Counted from the first letter of the stretch, positions 14,079-43,304 are shown. The stretch is DNA of 64,000 nt from Thermoanaerobaculia bacterium (GCA_963719225.1 CAVRAY010000001.1:1920001-1984000), one strand, 5' to 3'. Notes: generated from the letters alone by a model not told the origin. Made by a program: numbers and translations.

Positions 14079-14777
14079 TCAACGTGCTCCGAGCTCGCCC
14101 GCCAGCCACTCGGCGGCGTCGCGGTAGGCCTCGCGGGGGAGGCGCCCGTCGACGTCCGGGGCATAGAGCTTCTCGATCACTCCATCGGAGGAAATATTTG
14201 CTTCGGACCCGAGCAATGCCTCCAGCAGCACTCTTCGGGGTGCGCTGTCGAAGAATTTCCTAGAAGGGGAAGAGGGGGAGGGAAAGCCCGCGGGGTCGGG
14301 CGTTCTGCTTTGCAAAATCGCTACGGCGGCGGGAGCCGCGTCGGCCCCCATCCACTTTCTAAGAAAATCCCCCGTGGGTTCCACGAGAAGCCAGCCCGTT
14401 GGCGCGCCCTTGCTCTCTGCACGGGTCCGAAGCAAATCTTCCCTCGGCGGCTCTTTCGGCGCGTTCTCGAAAAGCAGAACGACGAACCCGCGCTCCGCGA
14501 GGGGCCCGAGGATCCGATCCTTCGGGCACGCCCTTGCGCCCGGCGCCGCGCAGACGACGACGATGGAAGGGCGGCCGGCAGCCGCGACGCGCTTTCGCTT
14601 GTCCGGATAGACGGAGCCGGGGAGCAGGGCGGCGTAGAGCTTCGGAACGTAGAGGCGCGCCCAGTCGCCGTTCGAAGAGATCTTCTCGGTCCGCTGCCAA
14701 AGGGACGACGCGCAGCCCGTCAGGCCGAAGGCCAGAAGCGCGACGAGGAAACAACGGGCGGCGGCAAAGTCTTTCAA
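14079..14777 (-). CDS. Hypothetical lipoprotein
   Basis: TTG 14777 overlaps the addA stop, lipobox LTGC follows a hydrophobic stretch. This is the 3' part of ORF 14079..16163. Confidence 0.55.
   Translation of the reverse strand: MKDFAAARCFLVALLAFGLTGCASSLWQRTEKISSNGDWARLYVPKLYAALLPGSVYPDKRKRVAAAGRPSIVVVCAAPGARACPKDRILGPLAERGFVVLLFENAPKEPPREDLLRTRAESKGAPTGWLLVEPTGDFLRKWMGADAAPAAVAILQSRTPDPAGFPSPSSPSRKFFDSAPRRVLLEALLGSEANISSDGVIEKLYAPDVDGRLPREAYRDAAEWLAGELGAR
14250..14370. repeat. Inverted pair of TTCTTAGAA motif inside the lipoprotein CDS
   Basis: AAGAATTTCCTAGAAGG (14257-14265) and CTTTCTAAGAAAATCC (14357-14365). Confidence 0.75.
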
Positions 14778-17700
14778 TCTTCTTCGAATGGTAAGGAGGC
14801 CTGGACGGGACGCCGGCCCTGCGCCTGCGACGCGCCCGCTTCGGGCTCCGCCGCTCTCTCTACCCCCTTCAAAGAATCTCTTTCTTTCTCCCCCCTCGAC
14901 GTATCTCGGCTTCGTCCTTCCTCCAGCCACTGCAGATGTCCGTTGTCCATGAAATAGAGCCCCGCCACGGCGCGCTGTTTCGTGAGCGCCTCCCACGCCT
15001 TGCGGTAATGCTCGATCTGCGGCGCGTAGTGAGCGACGAGGGCGTCGAGGTTGTCGCCGACGACGTCGGATTTCCAGTCCACGATGTGCCAGATCCCGTC
15101 CTCTTCGAAGACGAGGTCGATCGCGCCCTTGAGGAGCGTCTCCTCCGGCCCGCCCGAGACTCCGAGCTCGGCCGATGGAACCATCATGGCGAAAGGCGCC
15201 TCGACGAACCTGCGTTTCGCCGCGAGGGCCCGCGCCCAGAGCGGCGACGTCGTGACCGAGTCGGCCACGCGGAGCACCTCGTCGAGAAACGCCGATCCGA
15301 GCTCCTCCTCGCGCAGGAGGTTCTGCGCGACGGGGCGCAGCGAGAGGCCGGGCGTTCGCATCGCCGCCTCGAGGAGCTGGTGCAGAACGCGTCCCCAGGC
15401 GGTGCCGCGGGCGTTCTCGGCTGCGGCCGGCGCGCGCGGGCCTTCCTTCTTCGCGAGCGCGGTGACGGGCGCCACGACGAACGAAGGAGTCGCGGCGCTC
15501 AGACGCCCCTCGGCGATCCTCTTTCGGGCCCCGGCGAGCTCCGCCGCGAGCGGCGGAGTCTTCGCGGGAGCGAAAGGCCGAAGCTCGGCGATCGCGGGCG
15601 GAAGTTCCTTCAACCCGGACCTCAGAGGCGCCCATGCTCCGCTTTCCGGCTTGTCCTCCCGGAGGCTCACGACCAGCGTGTCGCGGGCCCGTGTCGCAGC
15701 GACGTAGAGGAGTCGCGTCCTCTCGGCCTCCTCGAAGGCGATCTCGTCGTTCTTGCGGCTCTCCCAGTCGGGAGGAGTCGCTGTCGCGGCCCACTGATTC
15801 GGCCGCATCCAGTATCCCGCCGTGAACCAGCCGCGCGATCCCGCGGCGCCGCGCGCGACGTGGCGCCTGGGCTCGGGCTTCCTCCAGACACTGAGCTCGG
15901 CGAGGACCACGATGGGGGCCTCGAGGCCCTTGGCCCGGTGGAGGTTCATGAGTCGGACGGCGTCCGCGTCGACGGGCTCGACGCTCATCTCCTCGAGATC
16001 GAGGGAGGGCGCGTCCTCGGCGAGCCGCTGTACGACGTCCCGGAACGAATGCCCTTCGCTCGTCAGCCGCCGCGCGAGCGCCAGTACTTTCAGGAGGTTG
16101 CCGCTGGCGGTTCGTCCTTCGGGCCCTGCGGCGAGCCGTGCGACGAGGCCGAGCCTGTCGCACGTGAGGGCGAGAGCGGCGCCGGCCGGATGCACGTTCA
16201 CGTCCTTCCGCGCTCTTGCGAGGAGGCCGAGGCCGCGGGAGATCCTCGGGTCCGTTCCCGGCGGAGGGTCGACGAGATAGGAGAAGCGCCCGCCGGCCCG
16301 ATGGAATTCGTAGAGCGCTTCGTCGTCGACGCCCGAGAGAGGGCCCGAGAGGAACGCGACGATCGAGACGTCGTCATCCGGATCCTGGATCGCCGCGAGG
16401 AACGGCCGCAGCACCGCGAGCCCTTTCGAGATCGGGAGCGCCCGGCTTCCCGACACGTCCACCGGTATTCCGAGCGCCTCGAACGCCCGTGCATAGACGT
16501 CGAGGTGTTCACGCGTCCGCGTCAGGACCAGGAAGTCACCGAAACGCGCGGCGCGTTCGGGCCCGTCGGATGAGACCGGCCATTTGTGGTCGACTGCTCC
16601 CCGGACGAAGCTCGCGACGTCGGAGGCATTGGCACATGCGAGCTCTTCGGCGCTGGCGCCGGCGCGCGTGAGGAGGCGAAACGCTCCGGACCTCTCCGAC
16701 CGGTCGTCTCGCACGGGTTCGAGGGGAGAGAAGGCAGCCTGGCGGTCGTCGGCGACCGCCGGAAACCGGCTTCGAAACCAGGCATTCGCCGGATCCGTGA
16801 GAGCTCGGACGGCCCGGAAGTTCGCGTCGAGCCGGACGATGCGTCCGCCGGACGCGACGAGCGTGCGGCGAAAATTCATGTATGCCGCGATGTCCGCGCG
16901 CCGGAAGCGATAGATCGACTGCTTGGGATCGCCCACGACGAAGAGCGATCCGGCCCTGGGCTTCAGACGCGACACGTCCTTCTCGTCCAGGTCGTCGCTC
17001 GTCAGGTAAAGGAGGATCTCTGCCTGCAGCGGATCGGTGTCCTGGAACTCGTCGACGAGGAGGTGCGTGAAGCGCGTCGTGAACGCCCGCCGAACCGCGG
17101 GGAAGTCCCGCAGGAGGTCGCGTGTCGCGAGAAGCAGGTCCGCATACGTGAACGGCCCGTTACCGGCGCGCCGCGACGCGAGATGCGCCAGCCCCGGCCG
17201 GAGCACGGCATAGATCCGCTCGTGCAGCGCGAGCTGCCACTCCGCGAGCGCAGGCTTGATGACGTCCTGGCGAAGAGCCTCGAACTCCTTGCCGAGGCTT
17301 CTCGCCAGTTCCTTGTCGGGCCATTTGTACAGGGTCGCACCGCCGGCCGGACGAAGAATTCTTAGAAGGCGGGCGAAGCCAGGCGGCGTCGCGTATTCGG
17401 GAAGCTCTCGCAGATTTCGCGCTTCGAGCAGCCGCGCCTGCAGGTCGTCGCGACCCGCCGCGCCGGGCGCTTCCGGGACCAGCGGAATTACCCTTCTAAG
17501 AAAATCTTCAATCTTCCCTCGTATTTCCTCGAAGTCGGGCAGCGCGAGCGGATCGGCGACGACGGGGACGACGTCGGGGTATTCGGCGTAGAGCTCGAAG
17601 CTGTCCTCCAGCTCTCTCATCGTGACGCCGAGCGCGAAGAGGGAAGCGACGGGGCTCCGGGCGTCCGCAAGCGTGCCGACATACTCGCGGAACGTTCGAG

Positions 17701-18136
17701 CGCGAAAGAGCGCCGCCTCCTGCAGCTCGACCCGGAGCGCCGCGGGATCGATTCCGGCCTCGAGGGGACGCTCCGAGAGCAGGAGGGCGCAGAAGGAGTC
17801 GATCGTGCCGAGCGTGAGGCGATCGAGCGTCCCCCGTGCGTCGTCGAGACGCCTCTTGCGCGCGGGATCCCGCTCGCGCCGCGCGGCCGTTTCGAGAGCG
17901 CTCTGGAAACGGCGCCTCAGATGCGACGCGGCCTTTCGCGTGAACGTGACGGCCGCGAGGTTCTCGGGGTCCGCCTTTCCTTCCGCCAGGAGCGCGAGCA
18001 TCCGGTCGACGAGCATCGTCGTCTTGCCGGAGCCGGCGCCGGCCTCGACGAGGAGCGTCACGTCGAGCGAGGTACGGATCTCGTGACGAGCCGCCGCATC
18101 TGGAAGAATCGCCGCGTCTTCGCCCGCGAAGCCCAT
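14774..18136 (-). CDS. addA: AddA-like UvrD helicase/nuclease
   Basis: AGAGSGKT, VDEFQD, VGDPKQSIYRFR, HRAKGLE, RLLYVAATRA and C-terminal GAID..IVDWKS nuclease motif. ATG 18136 is coupled to the addB stop. Confidence 0.9.
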   Translation of the reverse strand: MGFAGEDAAILPDAAARHEIRTSLDVTLLVEAGAGSGKTTMLVDRMLALLAEGKADPENLAAVTFTRKAASHLRRRFQSALETAARRERDPARKRRLDDARGTLDRLTLGTIDSFCALLLSERPLEAGIDPAALRVELQEAALFRARTFREYVGTLADARSPVASLFALGVTMRELEDSFELYAEYPDVVPVVADPLALPDFEEIRGKIEDFLRRVIPLVPEAPGAAGRDDLQARLLEARNLRELPEYATPPGFARLLRILRPAGGATLYKWPDKELARSLGKEFEALRQDVIKPALAEWQLALHERIYAVLRPGLAHLASRRAGNGPFTYADLLLATRDLLRDFPAVRRAFTTRFTHLLVDEFQDTDPLQAEILLYLTSDDLDEKDVSRLKPRAGSLFVVGDPKQSIYRFRRADIAAYMNFRRTLVASGGRIVRLDANFRAVRALTDPANAWFRSRFPAVADDRQAAFSPLEPVRDDRSERSGAFRLLTRAGASAEELACANASDVASFVRGAVDHKWPVSSDGPERAARFGDFLVLTRTREHLDVYARAFEALGIPVDVSGSRALPISKGLAVLRPFLAAIQDPDDDVSIVAFLSGPLSGVDDEALYEFHRAGGRFSYLVDPPPGTDPRISRGLGLLARARKDVNVHPAGAALALTCDRLGLVARLAAGPEGRTASGNLLKVLALARRLTSEGHSFRDVVQRLAEDAPSLDLEEMSVEPVDADAVRLMNLHRAKGLEAPIVVLAELSVWRKPEPRRHVARGAAGSRGWFTAGYWMRPNQWAATATPPDWESRKNDEIAFEEAERTRLLYVAATRARDTLVVSLREDKPESGAWAPLRSGLKELPPAIAELRPFAPAKTPPLAAELAGARKRIAEGRLSAATPSFVVAPVTALAKKEGPRAPAAAENARGTAWGRVLHQLLEAAMRTPGLSLRPVAQNLLREEELGSAFLDEVLRVADSVTTSPLWARALAAKRRFVEAPFAMMVPSAELGVSGGPEETLLKGAIDLVFEEDGIWHIVDWKSDVVGDNLDALVAHYAPQIEHYRKAWEALTKQRAVAGLYFMDNGHLQWLEEGRSRDTSRGEKERDSLKGVERAAEPEAGASQAQGRRPVQASLPFEED
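17353..17520. repeat. Inverted pair of TTCTTAGAA motif inside addA
   Basis: GAAGAATTCTTAGAAGG (17359-17367) and TTACCCTTCTAAGAAAATCTTC (17494-17502). Confidence 0.8.
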
Positions 18137-21100
18137 CAGACGTCTCTCCGCTCGATCGCGCGAATCGGATCCAGCAGCGGGTCGCCGGTCTCGGAGTCTC
18201 TCTTTCGCCCGGCTTGGGCGGCCGTCACCGCGACGTCCCCGCAGATCGACCGGAAGCGACAGAAGCGGCAATCGTCCGCGTCCGCCGTGTGCGGAAACGA
18301 CCCCGAGGCGACGAGCGCGAACAGGTCGTCGAGCGTCTCGTCGACGACGGCGTCTTCGGCCTCGAGCGTGAACCGCTGCATCTTTCCCTTCCGCGTCGGA
18401 AGGAGGTAACCAGAGGTCACCTCTGCGGCCCGGATGCCGGCGCGCTCGAGAAGGGCGGCGGCGGCCCGCTTGTAGAGGGCGTGCTGGAGCAGACGCCCGC
18501 CGCGCAGGGGCCGCTCCGCGCGATGCTCCTCCTTGAAAGCGTAATCGCCTCCGGACTTGTAGTCCCAGACGGCGTATCGCCCGGGCGCGGTCTCGTCGAT
18601 CCGGTCGATCTGGCCCTGTAGCAGGAACGAGCCGCCCGGAGTCCGGATCTCGACGGGCTCGGGCGAACCGAGCGGCTCGTCACGGCTCGCGCGTTTCAGC
18701 CCGAAGGGTACCTCGAACCACTTCGGCGTCGAGCTCGGATTCTCGGCCTCTGACCGAAGGAAGATGTCGCAGGCGGCGAAGAGCTCGTCCTCCTGCGCCC
18801 TCAGCGCGGCGAGGTTTGGCGGTGGGACGAGCTCCTTCCAACGCGCGATCTTCTTCCCGGCGACGGCCTTGAGGCGCGCGACGTCGCGCACGGGATCGAG
18901 CTTCACGCTCTCGGCGCGGAGGTCCGACATGAACGCGTAGAGCACCTCGTGAAGCAGATTCCCGAACTCGCGCGCGTTGAGCCACTCGCTCTCCGAGCGC
19001 TCTTCGTCGGGAGGCGAGAGGCCGAGGACGTACTCGTAGAAGTACATCCGGGGGCATTTCGCGAGCTTTTCGAGGCGGGAGGCCGAGAGAGGCTGCTTCG
19101 TCCTGCGGGGATCGAGATCGGCCGCGGCCGAGGATACGCGTCCGTCCCACGGCGTGAACGCCTCGCTTTCGCGCTCCCTCTCCGCGCGCGCTCCGTCCCG
19201 GAGCCAGGGGTAGGCGTTCTCGACCTCGGCGCGGAGTCCCCTCGCTCCTGTCGCGGCGCGGATCCGGGCGAGCCACCATTCGGTCTCGTCGAGCGGAGCG
19301 CCGCCCGGCACGAACGTCGCAGGCGCCCCGAGCGCCTTCGCGAGCGCGTCGTATCCGGCCTCGGGCGCGCCTTCGCGCTCGCGGAAGAGCTGCAGAAGGA
19401 CGGGCGAGGGAAAGCGCTCGGCGTCCTGAAGGATGTCGCGATTCGAAAACGAAAGAGCGACGGTTCCCCGCGCGCGCGCGAGAAGAGCGCGGAGAGCCTG
19501 GCGTCTCTCGTCGGCGGAGGTCAGGCCCGGGAGGCCGAGGCGCGAGGCGGGAGGAAGGGTGCGATTCAGCGCGTCGCGCTCGGAATCGAGAAGGACGGGA
19601 TCCTGGCGCGGCGGCCCCGGGAAGCGAGTTTCGTCGAGGCCCAGGACGAACGTCCGGGATCGGGCGGAATAGCCCGCGCGTGCCAGGCGTGCGACGTGGA
19701 CATGACCGGGCGCGGGTGTCGCCGAGACGACGGCGAGGCGCACGACCGCTTCCCGCAGGCGGTCGGCCGCCTCCGCCGTCGAGAGAGCACGTTCCGGAAG
19801 CTCCGCGAGCTGCTGAAAGAGGCCGGAGAGCGCCTCGGCCGCGGCCCCGTCCAGGTCGCTGCCCTTCGTGATCATTTCGCCGACGACCTCGTGACAAGCC
19901 GCGGCAAGGGCCGGAAGGGAAACGCGACGGCTCGAGATTTCCGGGCTGAGCTCGAAGAGCCGGCTCACGAACGCGCGCAGCGCCTCGGCGGCGGCGAGGC
20001 GCTCGGCCCGCGCGGCGTCGCGCGCGGAGTCCGTCTCGTCCTGGGGTTCCGGCTGTCTCTCCCGTTCGACGAGCGCGTCGAGGCGCGGCATGTAACGCGG
20101 CGCGCCGGCGAAGATGCGCGCCCGGCGGAGAAGCCGCGCCGCGCGGACGCCTCCGACGCGCGTGGCCGCTGGCTGGAACGGCTTCAACTCGGCGCGCCCG
20201 TCCGCGAGAAGGCGCTCCAGCGCCCCGACGCGGAAGTCGTGCGCGATCCAGTCGAGATAATCGAGGACGCCCTGTCCGGGCCGGGTGTAGGTGACCGGCA
20301 CGCCGTCGTCGAAGGTGCACGGAATCCCGTATTGCGACGCGAGCTCGTGGACGAGCGGTCGATACGTCGCGTCGTCGTCGAAGGCGATCTCGACGTCGTC
20401 GAGGCGCAGGCCCTCGTCGAGGATCCGCCGGAACGCGCCGCGAACTTCGTTCTCCTCGCTCAGGGCGTGCGAGAACGTCAGCGTCGACGGCGTGTGGCCG
20501 GTCCCGGGCGTGTCCTCGGCGAGAGGAACCGTCACGGGTGCGCATTTCGCGAGGAAACGCTTCTCGAGCGGCGCGAGCTCCAGCCCGGCAGGAAGGAGGA
20601 CGTGCGCCGACGGAGGAACGCGAAGAGCCGGGTCAACGCACGCCCGTGCCGCGCGGTCGAAGACCTCGGCGGCGTCGGCGGCGCCGAGCTTCTCGAGCAT
20701 CGCGTCGAAGGCCCGCGCGAGTGCCGCGAGCTCTCGCGCCTTCCGGGCGTCCTCGAACGCGTCCAGAGGAAGGGCGCCGGGCGCCACGCCGGCCCTTCGC
20801 AGCTCGTCGAGCGTGCGGTGAAGCGCGCGATGGAGTCCGACCCGCTCTCTCAGCCTTCCGAAATAGGAGTCGGCCTTCAGGACCTCGTCGCAGGCTGATT
20901 CCACGACGGCGAGGAGCTGCGCGCGCGAAAGCAGGCGGCGCCCGTCGGCGGCGAGGAACGGGCCGGCCACCTCGAGCGCGAGCGAGAACAGCGTCGCGGG
21001 CCTGAGGTTGAGGTGCGCGCAGCCCGAGCGTGCGAGCGTGTCGAGGATCTGCGTGCCGACCGCGAACGACGGGACGAGGAGGATCTTCTCGTCCAGGGAA

Positions 21101-21162
21101 TGATCTCCGCAGAACGCGGCGAGCTCCTGAAGGAGCCTGTTTCTCTCGACGGCCGCGCCCAT
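18136..21162 (-). CDS. addB: AddB-like PD-(D/E)XK nuclease with Fe-S cluster cysteines
   Basis: SASRLE..KCP, GQIDRID..WDYKS, CRFCRFRSIC. Lies directly upstream of addA. Confidence 0.85.
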   Translation of the reverse strand: MGAAVERNRLLQELAAFCGDHSLDEKILLVPSFAVGTQILDTLARSGCAHLNLRPATLFSLALEVAGPFLAADGRRLLSRAQLLAVVESACDEVLKADSYFGRLRERVGLHRALHRTLDELRRAGVAPGALPLDAFEDARKARELAALARAFDAMLEKLGAADAAEVFDRAARACVDPALRVPPSAHVLLPAGLELAPLEKRFLAKCAPVTVPLAEDTPGTGHTPSTLTFSHALSEENEVRGAFRRILDEGLRLDDVEIAFDDDATYRPLVHELASQYGIPCTFDDGVPVTYTRPGQGVLDYLDWIAHDFRVGALERLLADGRAELKPFQPAATRVGGVRAARLLRRARIFAGAPRYMPRLDALVERERQPEPQDETDSARDAARAERLAAAEALRAFVSRLFELSPEISSRRVSLPALAAACHEVVGEMITKGSDLDGAAAEALSGLFQQLAELPERALSTAEAADRLREAVVRLAVVSATPAPGHVHVARLARAGYSARSRTFVLGLDETRFPGPPRQDPVLLDSERDALNRTLPPASRLGLPGLTSADERRQALRALLARARGTVALSFSNRDILQDAERFPSPVLLQLFREREGAPEAGYDALAKALGAPATFVPGGAPLDETEWWLARIRAATGARGLRAEVENAYPWLRDGARAERERESEAFTPWDGRVSSAAADLDPRRTKQPLSASRLEKLAKCPRMYFYEYVLGLSPPDEERSESEWLNAREFGNLLHEVLYAFMSDLRAESVKLDPVRDVARLKAVAGKKIARWKELVPPPNLAALRAQEDELFAACDIFLRSEAENPSSTPKWFEVPFGLKRASRDEPLGSPEPVEIRTPGGSFLLQGQIDRIDETAPGRYAVWDYKSGGDYAFKEEHRAERPLRGGRLLQHALYKRAAAALLERAGIRAAEVTSGYLLPTRKGKMQRFTLEAEDAVVDETLDDLFALVASGSFPHTADADDCRFCRFRSICGDVAVTAAQAGRKRDSETGDPLLDPIRAIERRDV

Positions 21163-21305
21163 GCCGCGAGCTTAAGCGAAGCGAGGAAGGGGGCACGGGG
21201 GAAACGCGAACGTGTTTCCCCCGCTGGCTCGCAGATGCCGGGCCCGCCTGTCCCAGTTCGGACCGCGAAGCGGTCCGCGGGCCCGGCGTGTGATCATCGC
21301 GCCGC

Positions 21306-22838
21306 ATGGAAGGCGTCTCGCTCGGGCTGCCGACGCTGATCGCGATCGCCGTGTACCTCGCCGGCATCAACGTCCTCGGCGCGGTGCTCGGGCGGGGCCA
21401 GAAGGACGCGAAGGACTATTTCCTGGGCTCTCACGCGATGCCCTGGTGGGCCGTGATGGCCTCGATCGTCGCGACGGAGACCTCGGCGCTCACGTTCCTT
21501 TCCGTCCCCGGAGACGCCTACCGCACGGGCTTCACGTTTCTGCAGCTCGCGTTCGGCTATCTCCTCGGGCGCATCGCGGTCTCGTCGCTGCTCCTGCCCG
21601 GCTACTTTCAGGGCGAGATCACGACCGCCTACGCGCTCCTCGAACGGCGGTTCGGCGTCGGCGCGCGTCGCTTCACGTCGCTCATCTTCATGGTCACGCG
21701 CGTCATGGCCGCGAGCGTCCGCCTCGCGGTTCCCGCGATCCCGATCGCGCTCATCCTCGGCATTCCCGTGTGGATCGCGATCCTGTTGCTCGCGGCCGCG
21801 ACGGCTCTCTACACGTTCCTGGGGGGCCTCAAGGCCGTCATCTGGATCGATCTGATCCAGGTCGTCGTGTATCTCTCGGGCGCGATCATGGCGTTATGGG
21901 TGCTTCTCAATTCGTTCGGCGGGGGATTCGGAGGATTTCAAGAGATTCTTAGAAGGTGCAATGCGCTGGGGAACCCGGTTCGGCTCATTAACCTTTCTAA
22001 GAACTTTGCAGAACCCTACACTTTGTGGGCAGGTGTCATCGGAGGAGCCGTGCTTGCGATGGCCTCGCACGGCGCCGACCAGCTCATCGTCCAGCGGCTC
22101 CTCGCGTGTCGCGGCCTGCGCGACGCGCAGAAGGCCCTCGTCGGGAGCGGCGTCCTCGTGATCCTGCAGTTCTGCCTTTTCCTCGCCGTCGGAGTCGGAC
22201 TCTTCGCGTTCTACGGAGGGCGCGCCGTGGGCCCGGGCGGGTTCGCGACGAGCGACGAGATCTTCCCGGCGTTCATCGTCGGCCATCTCCCGCCCTTCAT
22301 TTCCGCGTATCTCATCGCCGGCATCTTCTCGGCGGCCATGTGCTCGGAGTCGTCCGCGCTCAACTCGCTCGCCTCGGCGCTCTCGCTCGACATCGTGGCG
22401 CCGCTGCTCGGGAGGAAGTACGTGGAAGGGAAGAGGGGCCTCGTCCTCGGGAAGATTCTGACGCTGTTCTGGACGGTCGTTCTCGCCGGGCTGGCCGTCG
22501 GCTTCTCGCGCCTGCCGCAGAACGTCCCGGCCGTACAGGTCGCGCTGGGCCTCGCGAGCGTGACGGCGGGCGGCCTCCTCGGCGCATTCCTGCTCGCGCT
22601 TTGGGCGAAGAAGGCGACTCAGACGGACGCGATGATCGGCATCGCCACGTCGGCCGTCTTCATGTTCGTCCTGTGGCTCGGATCGAAGGGCTGGGTGCCG
22701 TTCACGCTCGGGAAAATGATCGCGTGGCCGTGGTACTCGCTCCTCGGCTCGACGATCGCGTTCGGGACGGGGTGGCTCCTGTCACAGCGCCATACGACGC
22801 GAGGCCCGCGGTTCGGTGTGCCGCCGTCCCCGAGCTGA
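21306..22838 (+). CDS. Sodium:solute symporter (SSS) family transporter
   Basis: DYFLG, SIVATETSALTF, YALLERRFG, YT.LGGLKAVIW.D, DQLIVQRLLA. Confidence 0.92.
   Translation: MEGVSLGLPTLIAIAVYLAGINVLGAVLGRGQKDAKDYFLGSHAMPWWAVMASIVATETSALTFLSVPGDAYRTGFTFLQLAFGYLLGRIAVSSLLLPGYFQGEITTAYALLERRFGVGARRFTSLIFMVTRVMAASVRLAVPAIPIALILGIPVWIAILLLAAATALYTFLGGLKAVIWIDLIQVVVYLSGAIMALWVLLNSFGGGFGGFQEILRRCNALGNPVRLINLSKNFAEPYTLWAGVIGGAVLAMASHGADQLIVQRLLACRGLRDAQKALVGSGVLVILQFCLFLAVGVGLFAFYGGRAVGPGGFATSDEIFPAFIVGHLPPFISAYLIAGIFSAAMCSESSALNSLASALSLDIVAPLLGRKYVEGKRGLVLGKILTLFWTVVLAGLAVGFSRLPQNVPAVQVALGLASVTAGGLLGAFLLALWAKKATQTDAMIGIATSAVFMFVLWLGSKGWVPFTLGKMIAWPWYSLLGSTIAFGTGWLLSQRHTTRGPRFGVPPSPS
21941..22006. 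repeat. Inverted pair of TTCTTAGAA motif inside the SSS symporter CDS
   Basis: AGAGATTCTTAGAAGGT (21946-21954) and ACCTTTCTAAGAACTT (21995-22003). Confidence 0.8.
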
Positions 22839-24514: not shown

Positions 24515-24545
24515 GCCCTCGGGAGAGCAAACGCCGCGCCAGCGC

Positions 24546-24980
24546 TCACATGCCCAACATCACCCTTGCCACGCGCGACATCATCTCCGCGGTCCAGGGC
24601 GGCTCCCAGACGAGCTCGACCTTCGCATCGGTGATGCCGGGGATGGCCTTGATCTTCGTCTCGACCTCGCCCGGCAGGGAGCCTGCGACCGGACACGCGG
24701 GCGCCGTCAGCGTCATCTTCACGTTCGCGACGCCTTCGGGTGACACGCGCACGTCGTAGATCAGCCCCAGCTCCCAGATGTTCACGGGGATCTCGGGGTC
24801 GAAGCACTTCTTCAAGGCCTCATCGATGACCTTCTGCTCGAGAGGACTGGGAGAAGAGGAAGACGAAGATTGCTCGGATGACACGGGGTCGGACGCCGCA
24901 GACTGTACCGCCGATGCCGCGTACGCTTCGCCAGTGCTCTTGCCCTTATTACCTTCTAAGAAATCTTTCTCTTCTCCCAT
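24546..24980 (-). CDS. sufT: SUF Fe-S assembly protein SufT (DUF59)
   Basis: DPEIPVNIWELGLIY, MTLTAPACP, WEPPW. Last gene of the suf operon, with a low-complexity N-terminal extension. Confidence 0.88.
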   Translation of the reverse strand: MGEEKDFLEGNKGKSTGEAYAASAVQSAASDPVSSEQSSSSSSPSPLEQKVIDEALKKCFDPEIPVNIWELGLIYDVRVSPEGVANVKMTLTAPACPVAGSLPGEVETKIKAIPGITDAKVELVWEPPWTAEMMSRVARVMLGM

Positions 24981-25007
24981 TTCTCTATCTATTCTTTCTT
25001 TCTTTAA

Positions 25008-30866: not shown

Positions 30867-30879
30867 GAGAGAGAATGGA

Positions 30880-31005
30880 GATTGAAGAGAAGATAAGGGA
30901 TTCTCTTAGAAAGGGTTAGTGAGAAGTCGTCTCAATGCCGGGGACGGCACCGTGAGCCGCGAACTAGCTTCAAACCCTCTTACCTTCTAAGAAATCCGAA
31001 TCTCT
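30880..31005. repeat. Inverted pair of TTCTTAGAA motif
   Basis: Purine tract-ATTCTCTTAGAAAGG (30903-30911) and TACCTTCTAAGAAATC (30985-30993). Confidence 0.8.
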
Positions 31006-31826: not shown

Positions 31827-32938
31827 CTCGCCGCCAAGTGGACCGGAAGGCGGCGGGGACCCCAGGAACCGGGGATTTCTTCGAAGGTTCCCGGGCAGGC
31901 TGCTCCGCAGGAGCAACACAGACCTCCCTTGGTGAGGGACCATTCGAAGATCTGGTAGCCGTCGCGTCCTATGAGGCGCGTGCCGCATTGCGGGCAGGTC
32001 GTACTCTGTCCTTCTGGATCATGAACATTCCCCGTGTAGACGTAGCGGAGGCCGTTCTTCCGCGCGATCTCACGCGCACGCGTGAGCGTGGCGGGGGGCG
32101 TCGCGGGCCGGTCTCGCATCTTCCAGTCCGGATGAAACGCGGTGAAGTGGAGAGGGACGTCCGGGCCGAGGTGGTCCCTTATCCAGAGCGTCATGGCGTC
32201 GATCTCTTCGTCCGAGTCGTTGAGGCCCGGGATGAGGAGGGTCGTGATCTCGGTCCAGACGCTTGTCTCCTTCACGAGGTACTCGAGCGTCTCGAGAACC
32301 GGCGCGAGGTGCGCCCCGCAGACCTTCTGGTAGAAGTCCGCCGTGAACGCCTTGAGGTCGACGTTGGCGGCGTCCATGTACGTGTACATCTCGGCACGCG
32401 GCGCCGGGGACATGTAGCCCGCGGTCACGGCGACGGACTTGATGCCCCGTTCGCGGCACGCCTGGGCCACGTCGATGGCGTACTCCATGAAGACGACGGG
32501 GTCGTTGTACGTGAAGGCCACGCTCCGGCAGCCGAGCGACGCGGCGGAGTCGGCGATGCGCCCGGGGGACGCGGAATCCGCGAGCGTGTCGACCTGCCGG
32601 GACTTCGAGATGTCCCAGTTCTGGCAGAACCGGCACGCCAGGTTGCAGCCGGCCGTGCCGAACGAGAGGACGGACGAGCCCGGAAAGAAATGGTTCAGGG
32701 GCTTCTTCTCGATGGGGTCGACGCAGAATCCGCTGCTCCGGCCGTAGCTCGTGAGGACGATCGCGTCTCCCTGGCGCCCGCGCACGAAGCAGTGGCCGAG
32801 CTGGCCCTCTTTCAGTCGGCACTCCTTCGGGCAGACGTCGCACTGAATGCGACCGTCGTCGACGGCGTGCCAGTAGTGGGTTGGGTGGCCGACACCCGTG
32901 AGGGTTTCCAGGGACGTTCCTCGCTCCCCATGATGCAC
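31823..32938 (-). CDS. amrS: AmmeMemoRadiSam system radical SAM enzyme
   Basis: DPIEKKPLNHF, GCNLACRFCQNW, AFTYNDP, FHPDWKM, YVYTGN. Start codon uncertain (GTG 32938 or slightly downstream). Confidence 0.92.
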   Translation of the reverse strand: MHHGERGTSLETLTGVGHPTHYWHAVDDGRIQCDVCPKECRLKEGQLGHCFVRGRQGDAIVLTSYGRSSGFCVDPIEKKPLNHFFPGSSVLSFGTAGCNLACRFCQNWDISKSRQVDTLADSASPGRIADSAASLGCRSVAFTYNDPVVFMEYAIDVAQACRERGIKSVAVTAGYMSPAPRAEMYTYMDAANVDLKAFTADFYQKVCGAHLAPVLETLEYLVKETSVWTEITTLLIPGLNDSDEEIDAMTLWIRDHLGPDVPLHFTAFHPDWKMRDRPATPPATLTRAREIARKNGLRYVYTGNVHDPEGQSTTCPQCGTRLIGRDGYQIFEWSLTKGGLCCSCGAACPGTFEEIPGSWGPRRLPVHLAAR

Positions 32939-33077
32939 CCGCCGCGCGCCGGAGGCGAGGGGCACCGTGAACCGAAGACGAGGATTTCTTCGAAGGCTCG
33001 TGAGCGCTTCTCGATGCCGGCCTCGACGCACCGCGCCGGTAGCCGTCGCCTTCGGTACATGTTGTCGATCGCCACGC

Positions 33078-33416
33078 TCAGCCGCCCAGGATTTCGTTCA
33101 ACCCTTCGAGGACCTGCTCGAGCTCGTCCGGCGTGGCGCGCGCCAGGCGCTTCCCGAGCCTCTCCGTCGAGAGGGTCCGCAGCTGGCCGATCTTGACCCA
33201 GGACTTCTTCGGGAGCTTCGGGTCCGAAAGGGGAAGCGTGAGGGGGAATCCGGCCCGCGGCGCCTGACCCGTGAGCGCAACCGCGATGACGGTTCCGGAG
33301 TTTCGGTTGAAGACGTCGGCGCTCAAGATGAGTACCGGACGGAGACCCGCCTGCTCGCTGCCACGGACCGGGTTCAGGTCCGCCCAGACGATGTCCCCTC
33401 TCAGTAGGGCGGCCAT
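33078..33416 (-). CDS. mazF: Type II toxin, PemK/MazF family endoribonuclease
   Basis: RGDIVWADLNPVRGSEQAG.RPVLILS..FN, QLRTLS.ERL. Confidence 0.9.
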   Translation of the reverse strand: MAALLRGDIVWADLNPVRGSEQAGLRPVLILSADVFNRNSGTVIAVALTGQAPRAGFPLTLPLSDPKLPKKSWVKIGQLRTLSTERLGKRLARATPDELEQVLEGLNEILGG

Positions 33417-33640
33417 TCGGCGACCGGTTCCAGACCTTCCTCTGCGAGAGCACGCTCGACGCGGCGATCCAGCTTCGCGCACTCGCGTGCGAGGCGAGTG
33501 CCGTCGATCCGGCCGAGCTTGTCCTCGATGGAGTCCTGCACGAACCGGCTCCGGCTCGGGAACATGCCCCGACGAACGAGCCGGTCGACCTGTGTCAGCG
33601 TTCGCCGGTCCAGCGAGACGGCGACCTTCGCGGTTCTCAT
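33401..33640 (-). CDS. Ribbon-helix-helix (CopG-like) antitoxin
   Basis: KVAVSLD..VDRLV..FPSRSRF, overlaps the toxin start. Confidence 0.85.
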   Translation of the reverse strand: MRTAKVAVSLDRRTLTQVDRLVRRGMFPSRSRFVQDSIEDKLGRIDGTRLARECAKLDRRVERALAEEGLEPVAEWPPY

Positions 33641-33676: not shown

Positions 33677-33707
33677 ACGTCAATGCCGTCACTTCGAGAG
33701 GGACCCA

Positions 33708-34755: not shown

Positions 34756-35359
34756 GGACGGCCTCGGAGGCGGGCACGGGCCCGTGCTCGATCTCTCGCG
34801 TCAGAAGGAAGAGGAAGAGCACGCCGAGGGCGAGAAGGACGAAGGCCCCGAAGTCGGCGAGATGGAGCGTGCCGTCGGGGGCGACCGCGAACCCCGCCGG
34901 ATGCTGGAGAAACGCGTTCGTCGCGACGATGAAATAGCCGGAGAGCCAGCTTCCGAAAAAGAGCGCCACCGCGGCGAGAAAATGTCCGCTCTTTCCCAAG
35001 CGTTTCTCCCCCCAGACGAGAAGGGAAAGAAAGCTCGACTCGAGGAAGAACGCGAAGAGCCCCTCCATCGCCAGCGTGTGGCCGACGACGTTGCCCGCGA
35101 AACGCGAGAACCGCGCCCAGTTCGTCCCGAACTGGAACTCCATGGGAATTCCGGTCACGACTCCCATCGCGAAGTTGAGCCCGAAGATCCGGATCCAGAA
35201 GCGCGCGGCGTCATTCCACCTCTCGCCGCTCGAACGGAGACCGAGCGCCTTCATGACGACGATGAGGAACGCGAGCCCCATCGTCAGAACGGGAAAGAGA
35301 TAGTGATAGACGATCGTGAAGGCGAACTGGAGGCGGTGGAGGAAGAGCGGATCGCTCAT
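34748..35359 (-). pseudogene. cydA: Cytochrome bd oxidase subunit I with large in-frame internal deletion
   Basis: RLQFAFT..YHYLF, GVVTGIPMEFQFGTNW and FFLESSF are present, then the sequence jumps to the terminal helix (REIEHGP). Only 203 aa, no Q-loop or GRQPW motif. Confidence 0.85.
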
Positions 35360-35380
35360 GCTGCGGTGTGAGGCCGCCGG

Positions 35381-38269
<2,889 letters not shown>

Positions 38270-38370
38270 GCGGGCATCTCCTTATGACTTCAGGAATCTA
38301 CTCCGATACGCGGCCCGGCGCTTCGAAGTTTCGGAACGCGAGCGTATCGTGAAAGGGGAGCGGAGCTCGG

Positions 38371-39396
38371 ATGGACCGTCTCGACGACGCGCTCGAAATT
38401 CTGGACGGAGCCGGACCCGAGTACGGCGGCGGCCTCTCGAATCACGGCCCGATGGCGGCCGAGGCTCTCTTCGCGCTCGAACAGCCCGGCGCGGTCGTCC
38501 CCTGGACCGAACGCTACCGCAGGAAGCTGGGGGAGGAGCCCGCGCCCGGCAGGCCGGTGGAACGTGGTGCGATCCGCGACGCGCTCGGACAGATGAGGAG
38601 GTACCCCGACTGGCTCGCTCTTTTCCTGGAGGAGTTCCACGAGGGTCCGTGGAAACCGGCTCTGGACCGGTGGGTATACGAGCTCGCGCCGGGATTCGCG
38701 GGTGCTGCCGCGCACGGCGTCATCCGGGTCGGGCACGCGGCGCGCTCTCTCGCCCGGCACGACACAACGGGGAGGCGCAAGGAGCTCGCGCGAGGGTTCG
38801 CGTACTGGGCGGCGACCCATCAGACTCTGCCCACCAACGAAAGCTGGACGGCCCACCTCGCGCCCGATCAGGCGCTGGCACGCGTGCCGCGTGTGCCCGA
38901 CGACGTCCGGCGCACGGGGTCGATCGCGCAGGGCCTGAAGCTCGTCGCGACCCTGCCGGATTTCCCGGGTGCCATCTCGCTCGTCGACACAGGTCCGCCC
39001 GAGTCGTTCGTGCCCGCGGTCGGGGAGACCTTCGCCCGCGCCTTCCTCGCGGGAACAGCGCCCTCGGGGGAGGGGACGATCGCGCTCATCCACGCCGTGA
39101 CCGGCCCGGCCGCCGCGGGCCTTCTCGTGCCGCACGTGTCTCCGCGGACGGCGGCGCGACTGCTGGCCTGCGCATGGCAGGCGGGAGCGGCGATTTACGC
39201 CGTGTTCGGAAAGCCGCTTGGGCCGGGCGCGGTGGGAACGCCGCACGCGACGCCAGAGGAGTTGATCGCCGGCGCCGTGAAAAGCGGCGACGAGCATGCG
39301 ATCAAGTTCACGGAAGCGTGCCTGCGTCTCGACGCGGCGGCGCCGTCGCCTGCGTTCCGCGCAGCGGCGTCGCGGGCGATCGAGCTGCTTTCGTAA
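38371..39396 (+). CDS. Questin oxidase-like (DUF4243) protein
   Basis: LSNHGPMAAEAL, HGVIRVGHA, IHAVTG, GDEHAIKF. Confidence 0.75.
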   Translation: MDRLDDALEILDGAGPEYGGGLSNHGPMAAEALFALEQPGAVVPWTERYRRKLGEEPAPGRPVERGAIRDALGQMRRYPDWLALFLEEFHEGPWKPALDRWVYELAPGFAGAAAHGVIRVGHAARSLARHDTTGRRKELARGFAYWAATHQTLPTNESWTAHLAPDQALARVPRVPDDVRRTGSIAQGLKLVATLPDFPGAISLVDTGPPESFVPAVGETFARAFLAGTAPSGEGTIALIHAVTGPAAAGLLVPHVSPRTAARLLACAWQAGAAIYAVFGKPLGPGAVGTPHATPEELIAGAVKSGDEHAIKFTEACLRLDAAAPSPAFRAAASRAIELLS

Positions 39397-39412
39397 GCCC
39401 TAGAATCGCGAC

Positions 39413-40606
39413 GTGAACGACATGGGCCTCCCGGCATACGAGCGCGAGCCATACCGCACGACTCTCGACGCGTCGATCCTCGAAGTGCGCGACGACGCGG
39501 GAAAGCCCTACGCCGTTCTCGACGACACGATCCTCTTTCCCGAGGGCGGCGGCCAGCCGCCGGATCACGGCCTGGTGAACGATGTTTCGGTTCTCGACGT
39601 GCAGAAGGCCGAAGGCGAGATCCGGCACTACCTCGCCGCGCCCGTGACACCGGGACCCGCGCGCGTCCAGCTGGACTGGGAGCGCCGCTTCGACCACATG
39701 CAGCAGCACACGGGACAGCATCTTCTCTCCGCTCTCGCGCAGGACCGCTTCGGCTGGCTGACGACGGCATTTCATCTCGGCCAGGAGGTCTCGGACGTGG
39801 AGCTCGACGCGCGCGGCCTTTCGGCCGCCGGCCTCACGGCGCTCGAGGACGCGGTCGCCGCCGAGATCCGCGCGGCCCACCCGGTCCACCCGCGGCGCGT
39901 CTCGTTCGAGGAGTTCCGCGCGCTGCCCGTCAGGACCCGCGGACTCCCCGAGGACCACAAAGGCGACGTGCGCCTCGTCGCGATCGAGGGCGTCGATCTC
40001 AATACGTGCGGCGGGACTCACCTCTCGAACACCGCCGAGATCGAGGCGATCGCTCTTCTCTCGACGGAGCCCCTGCGCGGAGGAACGCGTCTTTTCTTCG
40101 TGGCCGGCCGGCGTGCGCGCAGGAGGCTCTCAGGCCACGAGGAGCGGAACGCGGCCCTGAGGGCGCTGCTCGGCGCCCCGGACGCGGGCCTCGCGGCCGC
40201 AGCGAAGGCGAAGCTCGACCAGCTGGCGGAGGCGCAGCGTGCGCTCCGGCGCGCCGACGAGGACCTGGCCGCCGCTGCCACGGCGGCCGCGCTGGCCTCG
40301 GGTGAGCGTGTCGTCTACGCGCACTTCGAAGGGCGGGACATGGCCTTCGTCCAGGCGGTCGCGAGGCGCTTCTCGGAAAAGGCCGGGGCGCGCGCGGCGT
40401 TCCTCACCGCGACGCGCGACGGGCAGCACGTCTTCGCGCTGGGAGCCGGCGAGGGCTTCGGCGACCCGCAGAAGCTGGGCCGCGAGATCGCATCGCGGGT
40501 CGGCGGAAAGGGCGGAGGCGCGGGCCGCGTCTTCCAGGGCAAGGCGCCCGGCCCGTTCGAGGCGGACCGGGCTCTCGCGTGCCTGAAAGGGAGCTCGAGC
40601 TCGTGA
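39413..40606 (+). CDS. Alanyl-tRNA editing protein (AlaX, long form with DHHA1 domain)
   Basis: FPEGGGQP.D, HMQQHTGQH, CGGTH, C-terminal GGKGGG. Confidence 0.9.
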   Translation: MNDMGLPAYEREPYRTTLDASILEVRDDAGKPYAVLDDTILFPEGGGQPPDHGLVNDVSVLDVQKAEGEIRHYLAAPVTPGPARVQLDWERRFDHMQQHTGQHLLSALAQDRFGWLTTAFHLGQEVSDVELDARGLSAAGLTALEDAVAAEIRAAHPVHPRRVSFEEFRALPVRTRGLPEDHKGDVRLVAIEGVDLNTCGGTHLSNTAEIEAIALLSTEPLRGGTRLFFVAGRRARRRLSGHEERNAALRALLGAPDAGLAAAAKAKLDQLAEAQRALRRADEDLAAAATAAALASGERVVYAHFEGRDMAFVQAVARRFSEKAGARAAFLTATRDGQHVFALGAGEGFGDPQKLGREIASRVGGKGGGAGRVFQGKAPGPFEADRALACLKGSSSS

Positions 40607-41521
40607 TCAACGGGGCTCGGGGCAGAACTCCTCGAAGCCGCGAGCGTGATCCCGGCGTGCGAGCCGCGAAGGGTCCGGGTCGCGCGGCAGGACGCCGAGC
40701 GCGATGAGCTGCGGCCGAAACTCGTAGCGCAGGCGCACGAGGGCGGCGGGTTCGCTCTCGAGCTCGAGGTCGACCTGCGTCACGCCGAACTGGGTTCTCC
40801 GACCCATGCCCGTCGCGGCGTACTCGTCCGAGAGCTTCGGGGAGGGAACGGGAGAAGTCGAAAGAGATTTCTGCGAGTGGTCCCGGGCCGTGCCGGACGG
40901 CTCGTTCTGCGCGATCCGGCCTTCGGCTTCGCCACCGTCCGATGAGGACCTTTTCTTCGAAAGGTCGCGATCGTCGCCGCGGCCGTCCGCCGCCGGCGCC
41001 GCGGCGGACGAGTCCGTATTCTCATTCGAAGGAATCCTCTCTCTTCTGCGGTCTTCTTCCTTCCACCACCTCTGGACGCGGTAGGGGAGTCTCTCGCGGA
41101 AGAACACCGCCTCGATGACGCCCAGGTCCTGGGTCTTCCCGAGCGCCGCGCCGTAAGAGCCGCGTTCACCCGTGAAGACGAACCTGCGGGAGGCCGCGTT
41201 CGAGACCTGCCAGCCCGGGATGATCACGGTTTCGTATGGCGCGAGGACCCATTTGCGCGCGTCCCGGGCCGTCGTGTGCCGGGAGTCGAGCGTGTTGAGG
41301 CCGTCCACCGAGAGCGCCACGGCGACGCGCGTTCCCGTCGGGTTCGAAAGGCGCAGGGCGTAATCGTGGCCGCGAAGCGCCTCGACGTAGACGGTGCCCC
41401 GCGAGGCGAACTCGGGGCGTTCGCGGCCGTCCACGAGGACGTCGAGGCCGAAGCCGAACGAAGAGGAAGCGTTCGCGGCCCCGGCGGTGAGGAGGAGTGC
41501 CGCGAGAATCTGGTGGCGCAT
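40607..41521 (-). CDS. Conserved hypothetical secreted protein
   Basis: Signal peptide, LSVDGLN, IPGWQ..RRFVFT, LGVIEAVFFRE, low-complexity linker. SD GGAG upstream. Confidence 0.7.
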   Translation of the reverse strand: MRHQILAALLLTAGAANASSSFGFGLDVLVDGRERPEFASRGTVYVEALRGHDYALRLSNPTGTRVAVALSVDGLNTLDSRHTTARDARKWVLAPYETVIIPGWQVSNAASRRFVFTGERGSYGAALGKTQDLGVIEAVFFRERLPYRVQRWWKEEDRRRERIPSNENTDSSAAAPAADGRGDDRDLSKKRSSSDGGEAEGRIAQNEPSGTARDHSQKSLSTSPVPSPKLSDEYAATGMGRRTQFGVTQVDLELESEPAALVRLRYEFRPQLIALGVLPRDPDPSRLARRDHARGFEEFCPEPR

Positions 41522-41541
41522 CGGAATCTCCCTTCGAGGAA

Positions 41542-41569
41542 TTGGACCTCCGCGCCTCCATTCGGTTCC
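41542..41569 (-). promoter_or_regulatory. Possible ECF sigma promoter
   Basis: Minus-strand GGAACC-N16-GTCCAA just upstream of the SD of 40607..41521. Confidence 0.4.
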
Positions 41570-41671
41570 CGGATAGGATCGGCTCTTGGATGCCCTGCAA
41601 AAACTCGCGGAAGCGGCTCGGGAGCTGGGGAAACCCCCGAAGGTCGCCCATGAAGTCGTAGGCTCGGTCCG

Positions 41672-43178
41672 AATGGGCCGAGCGCGCCGTGGAGCGGCGG
41701 AAGCGCCCGACCGGGCGGCGGTACCCCGCGCGGCGGCGGCCGGCGTCCGCGCCGTCCTCGTGGTCCACGGGATCGGGCAGCAGGTGCGCTTCCAGGCCCT
41801 GGACCAGATCGCGGAAGGGCTGCTGCGCGAAGCGGGTGACGGCGCGAGGAAGCCCGTCGCGCGAGCCGTCTCGATCGGCGACGAGATGTACCAGAGACTG
41901 GAGCTTTTTCTGCCGCTCGGGGACGGGGGAGAGCGCGAGGTCCACGTCTACGAGACGTACTGGGCCGAGCTCACGGAGGGACGCGTGACCCTGCGCGACG
42001 TGACGTCGTTTCTCTTCGGCGCCGCCCTCAACGGCTTTCGAAACCTCGGCGGCGTCCTGCGCGTCTCCTTCGGAAGCATCCACACGATTCGCCCGCCCCT
42101 CCCGGCCGTCCTCGGCCTTCTCGGCGCGTGCGCCGTTCTCCTCACGCTCGCCGCGATGAATGCCGTTCTTCTCGCGCTCGCCGCCCTCGAGGGGCTCCAG
42201 CCCGGCTTCGTACCCGCGTCGATCAAGGAGCGCTTTGCGGACAACGTTTCCGCGCTCCTCGCCCTTCTGACCGCCTTCAGCCTCGCCACGCTCGGCGTGC
42301 TGGCCCTCCTGTTCGTCGCGGCATGGGCGAAGCGGCGGACGGCGCGCGTGGGATTCGAGGGCTTCTGGCGCGCGGTCGGCGCGTCGCTGCAAGGCGTCTT
42401 CCTCGCGTGGCTGGCCCTGACGATTCTCGCGGGACTCGCCGTCGCGGTTCTCGTTTCGGGTGTCGGCCCCGAGGGGTGGACGCGCGAGGCTCTCTCGTGC
42501 CCATGGCTCGCGACACACTGGATGTTCCCTCTCGCCGCTCTCCTTCTCGCGTCGTCCGCGGTGAGGCGCTTCCTGGTCCAGTACCTGGGAGATGTCGCCG
42601 CTTACGTCACGTCCTACCGAATCGACCGCTTCGCAGAATTACGAAGCCGGGTAAAGGAGGTCGTTCGGAGAACCGCCGAGGCGGTCTACGAGGCGACTGA
42701 TAGCCCGGGGAGCAAGGTGAGGGCGTACGACGGAGTCGCCGTCGTGGCGCATTCTCTGGGGTCAGTCATCGCGTACGACGCGTTGAATACGCTCCTTCTC
42801 GATGATTCGTTCTGCGCCGAGACGCGCGACGTGGCGGAGAGAACCCGTCTCTTCCTCACGTTCGGCTCGCCGCTCGAGAAGATCGCGTTCGTATTCTCGA
42901 CGCGGGCGACGACGTACGCGCGCGAGGCCCTCGCGACGGCCTTGCAGCCCCTCATCAGCGATTACGCCTTCCGGCCGTTCCGTTGGATCAACGTCTTCTC
43001 CCCGCGCGACCCCATTTCGGGACGGCTCACGTCCTTCGACGACGCGAGCCAGCCGCTCTATCGCAAGCGGAGGATCCGCAATCTCCGGGACAGGGGAGCG
43101 GTGCTGCCCCTCCTCGCCCACCTGGAGTACTTCAGCGACCCGGTCCTGATTCGGCAGCTCGTCCGCGCTTTGCGGTAA
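41672..43178 (+). CDS. Membrane protein with alpha/beta-hydrolase-like motifs
   Basis: VHGIGQQ, AHSLGS nucleophile elbow, TFGSPL, DPISG, late His, with TM helices inserted. Start uncertain (41586-41672). Confidence 0.65.
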
Positions 43179-43180
43179 CG

Positions 43181-43304
43181 CAGAGAAAGAGGAAGACGAA
43201 AGAAAGATTTCTTAGAAGGTAAGAAGCGCGGCGCAGCAGGCGCGGTGCGCCGAGGTCGGCATGCGAGGCGCCTCACGCGCTTTCTAAGAAAATTCTCTTT
43301 CTTT
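43181..43304. repeat. Inverted pair of TTCTTAGAA motif, intergenic
   Basis: GAAAGAAAGATTTCTTAGAAGGTAAG (core 43209-43217) and CTTTCTAAGAAAATTCTCTTTCTTT (core 43282-43290). Confidence 0.85.

Follow-up and report, generated by a model that had tools for sequence, protein, structure and literature searches.

The window analysed here is a 64,000-bp stretch of a Thermoanaerobaculia genome (G000:C1:1,920,001-1,984,000; G000 comprises 4.75 Mb in 2 contigs with ~68% GC, 97% completeness and contamination given as 6.2%), in which a short polar DNA site recurs as pairs of copies facing each other. The site spans ~30 bp and consists of a purine tract, a quasi-palindromic core TTCTTHGAA, and then DG followed by ~10 further purines. 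The window carries housekeeping genes, among them a pepN-like gene, addAB, a sodium/solute symporter gene and suf, and neither a tRNA nor an Rfam match was found in it. Genes were called by our own hexamer model, and their boundaries are therefore approximate. A preliminary description of this DNA had listed eight inward pairs, the forward copy coming first (cores 3649/3792, 14257/14357, 14780/14868, 17359/17494, 21946/21995, 30903/30985, 40953/41025 and 43209/43282), and the core starts of all eight coincide exactly with hits of the site matrix. The tracts had been said to point outward, which holds for the long purine tract, yet a purine tract of ~10 bp is also present on the inward side of the core. 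Beyond that description, pairs were found to lie mostly inside genes and to alter the encoded proteins. Six of the eight listed pairs fall within predicted coding sequences, a ninth pair was missing from the list, and strong unpaired sites in the window number six. The sites of the window, including outer variants of the motif, are the following:

3381-3389, extra forward copy, outside the M1 aminopeptidase gene and its pair
3649..3800, inward pair (cores 3649-3657 on the plus and 3792-3800 on the minus strand), inside the M1 aminopeptidase gene 3455-6154
14197..14210, plus strand, outer variant site B (TTTGCTTCGGACCC), oriented like the forward core and ~60 bp further out
14257..14365, inward pair inside a genus-conserved gene (14079-14777, minus strand)
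14423..14436, minus strand, outer variant B', which mirrors 14197 and closes the set of B, forward site, spacer, reverse site and B' (B-F-spacer-R-B')
14671..14679, minus strand, weak 11.9-bit site, the product of a 12-bp in-frame patch
14780..14876, inward pair in the variable 3' tail of addA (14774-18136, minus strand)
17359..17502, inward pair inside addA
21946..22003, short inward pair (49 bp) inside the sodium/solute symporter gene 21306-22838
24954..24962, minus strand, strong unpaired intergenic site of 35 bits
27463..27726, the ninth inward pair (255 bp, 27463/27718), inside sufD
30903..30993, inward pair between an Rrf2 regulator gene and an AmmeMemo B gene, its reverse core overlapping the stop of the latter
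31877..31885, plus strand, unpaired site in a radical SAM gene
32986..32994, plus strand, unpaired intergenic site
40953..41033, inward pair inside an open reading frame without a family match (40607-41521, minus strand)
43209..43290, intergenic inward pair between converging genes
58357..58365, plus strand, unpaired site in a GNAT-like gene
63067..63075, plus strand, strong unpaired site in a PAP2 gene

In the genome as a whole, the refined matrix, which converged, retrieves 914 sites at 15 bits and 994 at 13 bits. The larger set holds 431 neighbours no more than 300 bp apart, against ~60 expected from uniform placement; 312 of them face inward, 18 outward, and 101 are in tandem, and 624 of the 994 sites (~63%) thus belong to one-way inward pairs. 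Such a genome-wide excess of convergent neighbours is in keeping with the preliminary description's view of the functional unit as bipartite and oriented, which is further supported by weak partners: around 262 strong "singles", a weak opposite-facing match was found on the inner side in 121 cases and on the outer side in 21. With an earlier, looser matrix at 16 bits, 1488 overlapping matches were obtained compared with 22 in a 5th-order Markov genome, and a control with the pattern turned backwards gave 0 matches across 151 genomes.

Spacing was examined in 295 pairs, that is, the 312 inward pairs minus 17 with a spacing of 93 bp that are mostly kinase paralogues. Only 19 pairs are spaced by less than 65 bp, while 107 fall at 65-99 bp, 95 at 100-149 bp and 74 at 150-300 bp, forming a one-sided distribution with a floor near 65 bp, a mode at 70-80 bp and a tail reaching 300 bp. 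The spacers are unrelated, as had been claimed for the window: 278 of 312 are singletons, and the sole large family (15 members) consists of kinase paralogues. A more sensitive comparison of 170 spacers gave 16 high scores versus 2-5 in controls, the top ones again belonging to kinase paralogues, and the spacer of the pair at 43209..43290 resembles one at an unrelated locus, C1:947481. No more than 7 sites occur per 1.5 kb. Sites show no bias between sense and antisense placement (138 vs 113) and no replichore skew, single sites being balanced in each 500-kb bin of C1, as expected for a signal in duplex DNA. In G000, site density drops ~4-fold between the terminus (24.5 per 100 kb) and the region of the origin and dnaA (6-8 per 100 kb); the gradient is weak in another genome, G031 (49 exact sites, 8 of them in 0.8 Mb around dnaA and ~14 per Mb in most other parts). 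Regarding the kinases, a tandem array of Ser/Thr kinase paralogues is located at G000:C1:2,295,000-2,320,000, where all have the 93-bp pair within the N-lobe of the kinase, and the linker of several contains a second pair plus the outer module.

The distribution among related genomes has a sharp boundary. The strict pair pattern was found in each of the 28 remaining genus genomes (12-120 pairs) and in 7 of 8 sister-genus genomes (1-13 pairs), and in none of the 26 other genomes of the family or the 88 genomes of two other families (0 of 114 in the order), so that two genera carry the motif and eight genera of the same family are without it. The negatives include G019 and G024, which are unpublished, and the result holds without both. 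In a scan of a species collection (30 of 64 parts), Acidobacteriota or Thermoanaerobaculia accounted for 120 of 121 loci, the remaining one bearing the label Prevotella. Phages were considered as carriers, and the 22 viral contigs that fit the pair pattern, all with 32-45% GC, were taken as chance matches. The motif is genuine and lineage-specific, exceeds chance expectation by far, and fits none of the families tested.

Regarding their placement, 183 of the 312 pairs (59%) lie within one predicted gene, 83 are intergenic and 46 are mixed. Highly conserved genes are avoided, with 2.4 sites per 100 kb in genes of at least 85% identity versus 26-33 at 55-75%. Protein lengths were compared with the sister-genus genome G046 (2.4 of its 4.2 Mb), which offered an orthologue for 82 of 173 in-gene pairs, 77 of them anchorable. 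The difference amounts to at most 2 residues in 25 of these pairs; 3-9 residues are added in 19, 10-24 in 14 and 25-45 in 16, and 3 pairs are shorter. A net in-frame insertion of 3-45 residues is therefore present in 49 of 77 pairs, compared with 11 of 169 control intervals (149 within 2 residues, 11 with 3-9 added, none longer, and 9 shorter). The added residues mostly represent the site and its outer tail (FLEGEE and SKKSSSS types), and in ~10 cases the spacer is new as well. Peptides encoded by the motif are enriched in 1033 orthologue pairs (FLEG 26 vs 6.7, SKKS 19 vs 3.0), with no enrichment of FFEG and FLRR in the same set.

Individual loci illustrate how pairs come about. At the symporter pair, four outgroup orthologues without either site align colinearly, three symporters of the genus have the forward site together with outgroup-like sequence at the reverse position, and in-frame gains of 9 and 12 bp flank the pair on its outer sides in some species. 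The same colinearity holds for the addA pair 17359/17494 with respect to genus and outgroup orthologues that have neither site, and its spacer is thus native gene sequence. In the gene at 14079-14777, the spacer of the pair 14257..14365 varies in length among species, two relatives have a duplicated unit of ~78 bp ending in the site, and the 12-bp patch that creates the site at 14671..14679 is present in 5 of 16 aligned genus sequences. The sufD pair differs by a net 3 residues from the sister-genus orthologue, and several relatives have a forward partner ~83 bp off at the place corresponding to the unpaired site 24954. Regarding addA itself, the identity of AddA (window 14774-18136) within the genus steps down from 85% to 50%, that of the neighbouring symporter being 87-92% (full-length matches), and addA appears mosaic or fast-evolving.

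Among 120 loci of relatives picked by the strict pattern, 87 could be aligned across the pair to G000, which has both sites at 45 of them, one at 24 and none at 18. The gap fraction in these alignments is 20-30% at pairs and ~1% outside. At sites not chosen by the pattern, mismatch in the core is 8-14% compared with 20-27% in the flanks (in-gene, 125 comparisons, 37 sites), and intergenic sites show 5-18% and 19-32%, respectively (21 comparisons, 12 sites). While fourfold-site divergence in the spacers is at background, substitutions at codon positions 1-2 are about twice as frequent, and elevated A+T at fourfold sites extends to ~100 bp outward. The core is kept and its surroundings are remodelled by insertions and deletions, without a sign of point hypermutation in the spacers.

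A larger grammar becomes apparent further out. The variant site B shares the orientation of the main cores and lies 55-100 bp beyond them on the outside, and a strong site is present 25-110 bp downstream for 27 of 33 outer-variant sites and upstream for 1; a full B-F-spacer-R-B' set stands in the window at 14197-14436. Unrelated loci share the 70-100 bp tract running from B to F, which is found in various genes, on different strands and in different frames, as well as between genes, and outer tails are made of repeated 5-6-base units of variable length. One example is a loop of an ABC permease (29 of 30 loci measurable). Its length is 99-117 bp across 6 outgroup genomes; among 23 genus genomes it ranges from 96 to 315 bp and stays in frame in 21. 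The loop is built of modules ordered as outer variant, site, spacer, site and outer variant, with two different modules alternating at one position, and its modules recur at unrelated loci. This unit has inverted TTTGCT/AGCAAA ends, the left of which overlaps native Phe-Ala codons, and no insertion sequence (IS) end among the matches listed fits the ends of the ~220-bp unit. Exact matches between sites of at least 24 bp number 89, versus 6-45 in Markov nulls, and 17 are found at 28 bp (5 of them IS copies), versus 0-4. According to the preliminary description, conserved spacers would have marked the pairs as copies of one mobile element; the spacers themselves are unrelated, and it is the modular ~220-bp unit and the shared outer modules that partly give that idea substance.

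The geometry, the lineage restriction, the conservation of the core, the gain of sites by substitution as well as by insertion, and the modules common to unrelated loci are all directly observed. We see about an even chance that the pair is a two-site, orientation-dependent signal in duplex DNA, recognised by a putative reader protein, which likely promotes short-patch recombination and thereby its own spread. The strict polarity, a floor of ~65 bp resembling two abutting footprints and the absence of helical phase suggest that the reader would load in one direction at each site, and that two complexes would meet by sliding or flexible contact, for which head-to-head tracking enzymes provide an analogy. 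Their meeting would cause nicking, pausing or opening of the DNA, after which short site-bearing patches could be pasted in by microhomology, with the purine tracts lengthening by slippage. Recombination of this kind is suggested by insertions centred on sites and by modules shared between loci; it would copy sites from one locus to another and lengthen protein loops in frame. A lone site would favour the gain of a facing partner, and pairs would then accumulate where the protein sequence tolerates them, as uptake sequences do. In its boldest version, which we consider unlikely, a dedicated cellular machine brackets chromosomal segments of 65-300 bp, writes the missing partner and pastes modules from locus to locus, thus forming a self-propagating editing signal that diversifies protein loops throughout the proteome of a single bacterial lineage and involves an enzyme of a new kind acting only on two facing sites.

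Several points weigh against a signal with an active reader. Ten candidate protein families were checked, none proved lineage-specific, and no reader or nuclease was found among them. No exact match between loci exceeds 36 bp, IS copies excepted, indicating that copying was old, short or partly convergent, and the B-F-spacer-R-B' unit could be a founder element that passed on the geometry. Synonymous divergence at fourfold sites is at background in spacers (0.356 vs 0.36-0.38), so they are no hotspot of point mutation; hypermutation was dismissed for this reason, divergence being raised only 31-60 bp outside (0.50, n 586). Insertions and deletions may partly reflect tolerant loops, and conservation of the core does not separate selection from repeated rewriting.

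The principal competing explanation is a decayed unit of ~220 bp, similar to miniature inverted-repeat transposable elements (MITEs) or to REPINs, the inverted doublets formed by repetitive extragenic palindromic (REP) sequences. Such a unit would have spread in an ancestor, its arms would later have been pasted onto look-alike native DNA by ectopic conversion, and the geometry would be inherited, with no reader at present. The permease loop, with its expansion over the outgroup length (96-315 vs 99-117 bp), ordered modules and inverted ends, fits this scenario, as do the recurrence of the same modules at unrelated loci, the addition of at least 25 residues by 16 of 77 pairs, and the coincidence of the spacing mode (70-80 bp) with the inner spacing of the unit. 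On the other hand, 278 of 312 spacers are singletons, to which sensitive alignment adds few families, 25 of 77 pairs bring no net change in length, many spacers align to native protein, and the three symporter orthologues with a forward site have an outgroup-like reverse position. Moreover, the 65-bp floor is one-sided, conservation of the core extends across species, and G000 has no match to PF01797 (Y1/RAYT; searched in G000 only). A decayed element thus seems rather unlikely. A different kind of insertion was also considered, in which a short piece of chromosome has both of its 3' ends extended by a polymerase with the motif's pyrimidine-rich strand and a variable repeat tail, and then re-integrates. 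Insertions clustered at sites and outer tails around a native spacer, the variable-length 5-6-base repeats, and the appearance of whole consensus patches at once are what such end-capping would leave. However, no template locus is seen, slippage accounts for the tails, partners can be gained separately, and the sole reverse transcriptase is of the group II intron type and lies on a site-free, contaminant-like contig end, which makes this a very improbable origin.

The remaining explanations concern what the paired sites might do. In the preliminary description, looping or wrapping of DNA and long-range pairing in single-stranded DNA or RNA had been offered for the bipartite unit, and neither fared well. 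No 10.5-bp periodicity was found in the pair spacings (p 0.29) and no helical period in A/T content around sites; a 30-bp period (p 0.006, 1 of 11 periods) is probably due to the single mode, and we do not claim it. The arms are no more alike within pairs than shuffled arms outside the core (|z| <1, 295 pairs), and 150 of 279 spacers, when folded, gave no hairpin signal (z -0.18 vs -0.26 for random DNA). Without helical phase, arm covariation or spacer hairpins, rigid looping and strand pairing both lose support. Bridging of the two sites by a nucleoid protein, with selection keeping ~300 small loops, would agree with the polarity and minimum distance, with the outer variants 55-100 bp further out and with the density gradient from terminus to origin in G000. 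It is nevertheless improbable given the lack of a period in spacing or composition, the absence of a histone fold, a second ParB present in 55 of 63 family genomes, the weak gradient in G031 and the turnover of pairs (45 both, 24 one and 18 none of 87). Pairing of the arms as a stem around a large loop, resembling attC or an RNA processing signal, is suggested by their complementarity by consensus, by a slight excess of core identity within pairs (z 2.7), and by a nine-sequence fold of the 49-bp symporter pair that joins the arms. Yet the core pairs in this fold are invariant or show one-sided changes only, no excess exists outside the core, the spacers fold like random DNA, the window has no Rfam match, the short spacings best suited for pairing are depleted, and arms in the opposite order would pair equally; we hardly expect this explanation to be correct. 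Finally, the motif could be a DNA uptake sequence, whereby a competence receptor prefers site-bearing DNA and molecular drive writes the site into genes. Lineage specificity, ~900 copies, 59% of pairs in genes, moderately conserved host genes and the presence of ComEC are in line with this, and so is the enrichment of motif peptides, as described for uptake sequences in the part of PMC2817400 used here. Against it, ~63% of sites form one-way pairs at 65-300 bp, unlike the Haemophilus influenzae sites in the part of PMC7811141 considered, ComEC occurs in 57 of 63 family genomes irrespective of carriage, and drive leaves the insertions and the module exchange unexplained, so that we assign uptake little likelihood.

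Simpler roles were set aside as well. Terminators are contradicted by spacers that are too long, by the 59% of pairs in genes, and by converging-gene placement that is not enriched (8 of 83 intergenic pairs); a promoter or Shine-Dalgarno role by the lack of sense bias and the even spread of sites along genes; invertible segments by the kept spacer orientation in symporter and addA alignments; and local fold-back copying by arms that are no more alike within pairs.

In regard to the protein that could read the sites, family-level gene counts refer to 63 genomes (29 of the genus, 8 of the sister genus and 26 non-carriers). ComEC and the second ParB, at the counts given above, are found in carriers and non-carriers alike; this ParB belongs to a second parA-parB pair situated near the replication terminus (L212:7866-9525). 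Histone fold and Cdc6 searches gave no match, and HU/IHF is represented by four ordinary copies. The tyrosine recombinases are, by our own reading, XerD-, integron- and phage-like, and an integron-type integrase lies at C1:1,115,037-1,115,990. A single reverse transcriptase and one short GIY-YIG match were both located on the foreign-looking end of contig 2, and no native small GIY-YIG gene was found; this site-free end (G000:C2:746,000-871,796) has lower GC and seems foreign or mis-binned. IS110 elements are patchy, occurring in 15 of 29 genus genomes, and are not inserted at the site in G000. Five copies of an IS110-family element (one partial) are present at C1:2,198,800-2,210,200 and C1:1,111,400-1,112,950, by our reading in attC-like cassette sites, and in these copies a strong site of 29 bits faces the right end at a distance of ~72 bp.

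Several known systems share parts of this organization. Type III restriction enzymes and McrBC track head-to-head between two sites, requiring a given orientation and a minimum distance without helical phase; the polar reading of duplex DNA is comparable, but restriction sites are avoided and not amassed. Chi and KOPS are polar motifs too, but they occur as replichore-skewed singles, and the sites described here have no skew. The covariation of arms and the folding of the whole site typical of attC-type single-stranded DNA hairpins were not observed. Palindromic elements of Rickettsia and MITEs in genes are in-frame insertions that add surface loops, which recalls the insertions relative to empty orthologous sites (49 of 77) and the ~220-bp unit with inverted ends at some loci. 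In the present case, however, no conserved internal sequence exists, only outer modules recur (at a few dozen loci), and the length is unchanged in a third of pairs. Downstream of addA in a genome without the motif (L202, G027), a short palindromic repeat pair resembles CGTC-type REPs. No description of the motif or of its arrangement was found in the open literature, most subscription papers and supplements lying outside the scope.

Similarity to REP doublets with RAYT lies in the over-representation of inverted doublets compared with singlets and in a unit of ~100 bp, going by the portion of PMC3116915 consulted; the pairs described here differ in being mostly intragenic (183 of 312) and widely spaced, with unique and often native spacers, no hairpin, and no Y1 transposase in G000. 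Neisserial NIME/dRS3 elements and the NTS sites associated with SsnA also have short inverted sites bracketing variable spacers of 50-200 bp at dynamic loci, and a role of site-specific recombination was proposed for these systems too, as stated in sections of PMC1797815 and PMC11893778. As portrayed there, NIMEs form intergenic arrays with repeated spacer families and a palindromic 20-mer, in contrast to polar sites present mostly as single pairs in genes; furthermore, the IS110 copies of G000 are not in the site, and a native small GIY-YIG gene is lacking among its detected genes. The uptake signal sequences (USS) of Pasteurellaceae and DNA uptake sequences (DUS) of Neisseriaceae are likewise lineage-specific words in hundreds of copies, many in less conserved coding DNA, with shifted peptide frequencies (PMC2817400, PMC7811141, in the parts cited). 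For H. influenzae, the relevant part of PMC7811141 gives 23% of USS within 100 bp of another, special pairs that overlap (up to 14 bp) in both orders, and no increase in uptake from two USS within 100 bp. What sets the present sites apart from USS/DUS as presented in those parts is that most copies form one-way pairs (65-300 bp), accompanied by insertions in frame and by modules in common; a role in uptake is not indicated.

It is rare for a word to override protein sequence throughout a genome, and uptake sequences, Chi, KOPS and REPs each led to a DNA-handling protein. The rule of two copies facing each other across at least ~65 bp, with the bracketed spot gaining in-frame sequence, is not encountered in those families. 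Should the reader also drive the rewriting, this would represent a new route to variation in protein loops and possibly a two-site DNA tool.

Other features of the window include a 1038-bp insertion element with an integrase-core domain (46236-47273), which has one further copy at C1:3,326,489, and a PemK/MazF-like toxin gene (33078-33640) with a ribbon-helix-helix partner upstream. In addition, a TPR protein that weakly matches a multiheme cytochrome is encoded at 11246-14044, and a 1048-aa protein with 14 GloVer repeats at 59225-62371.

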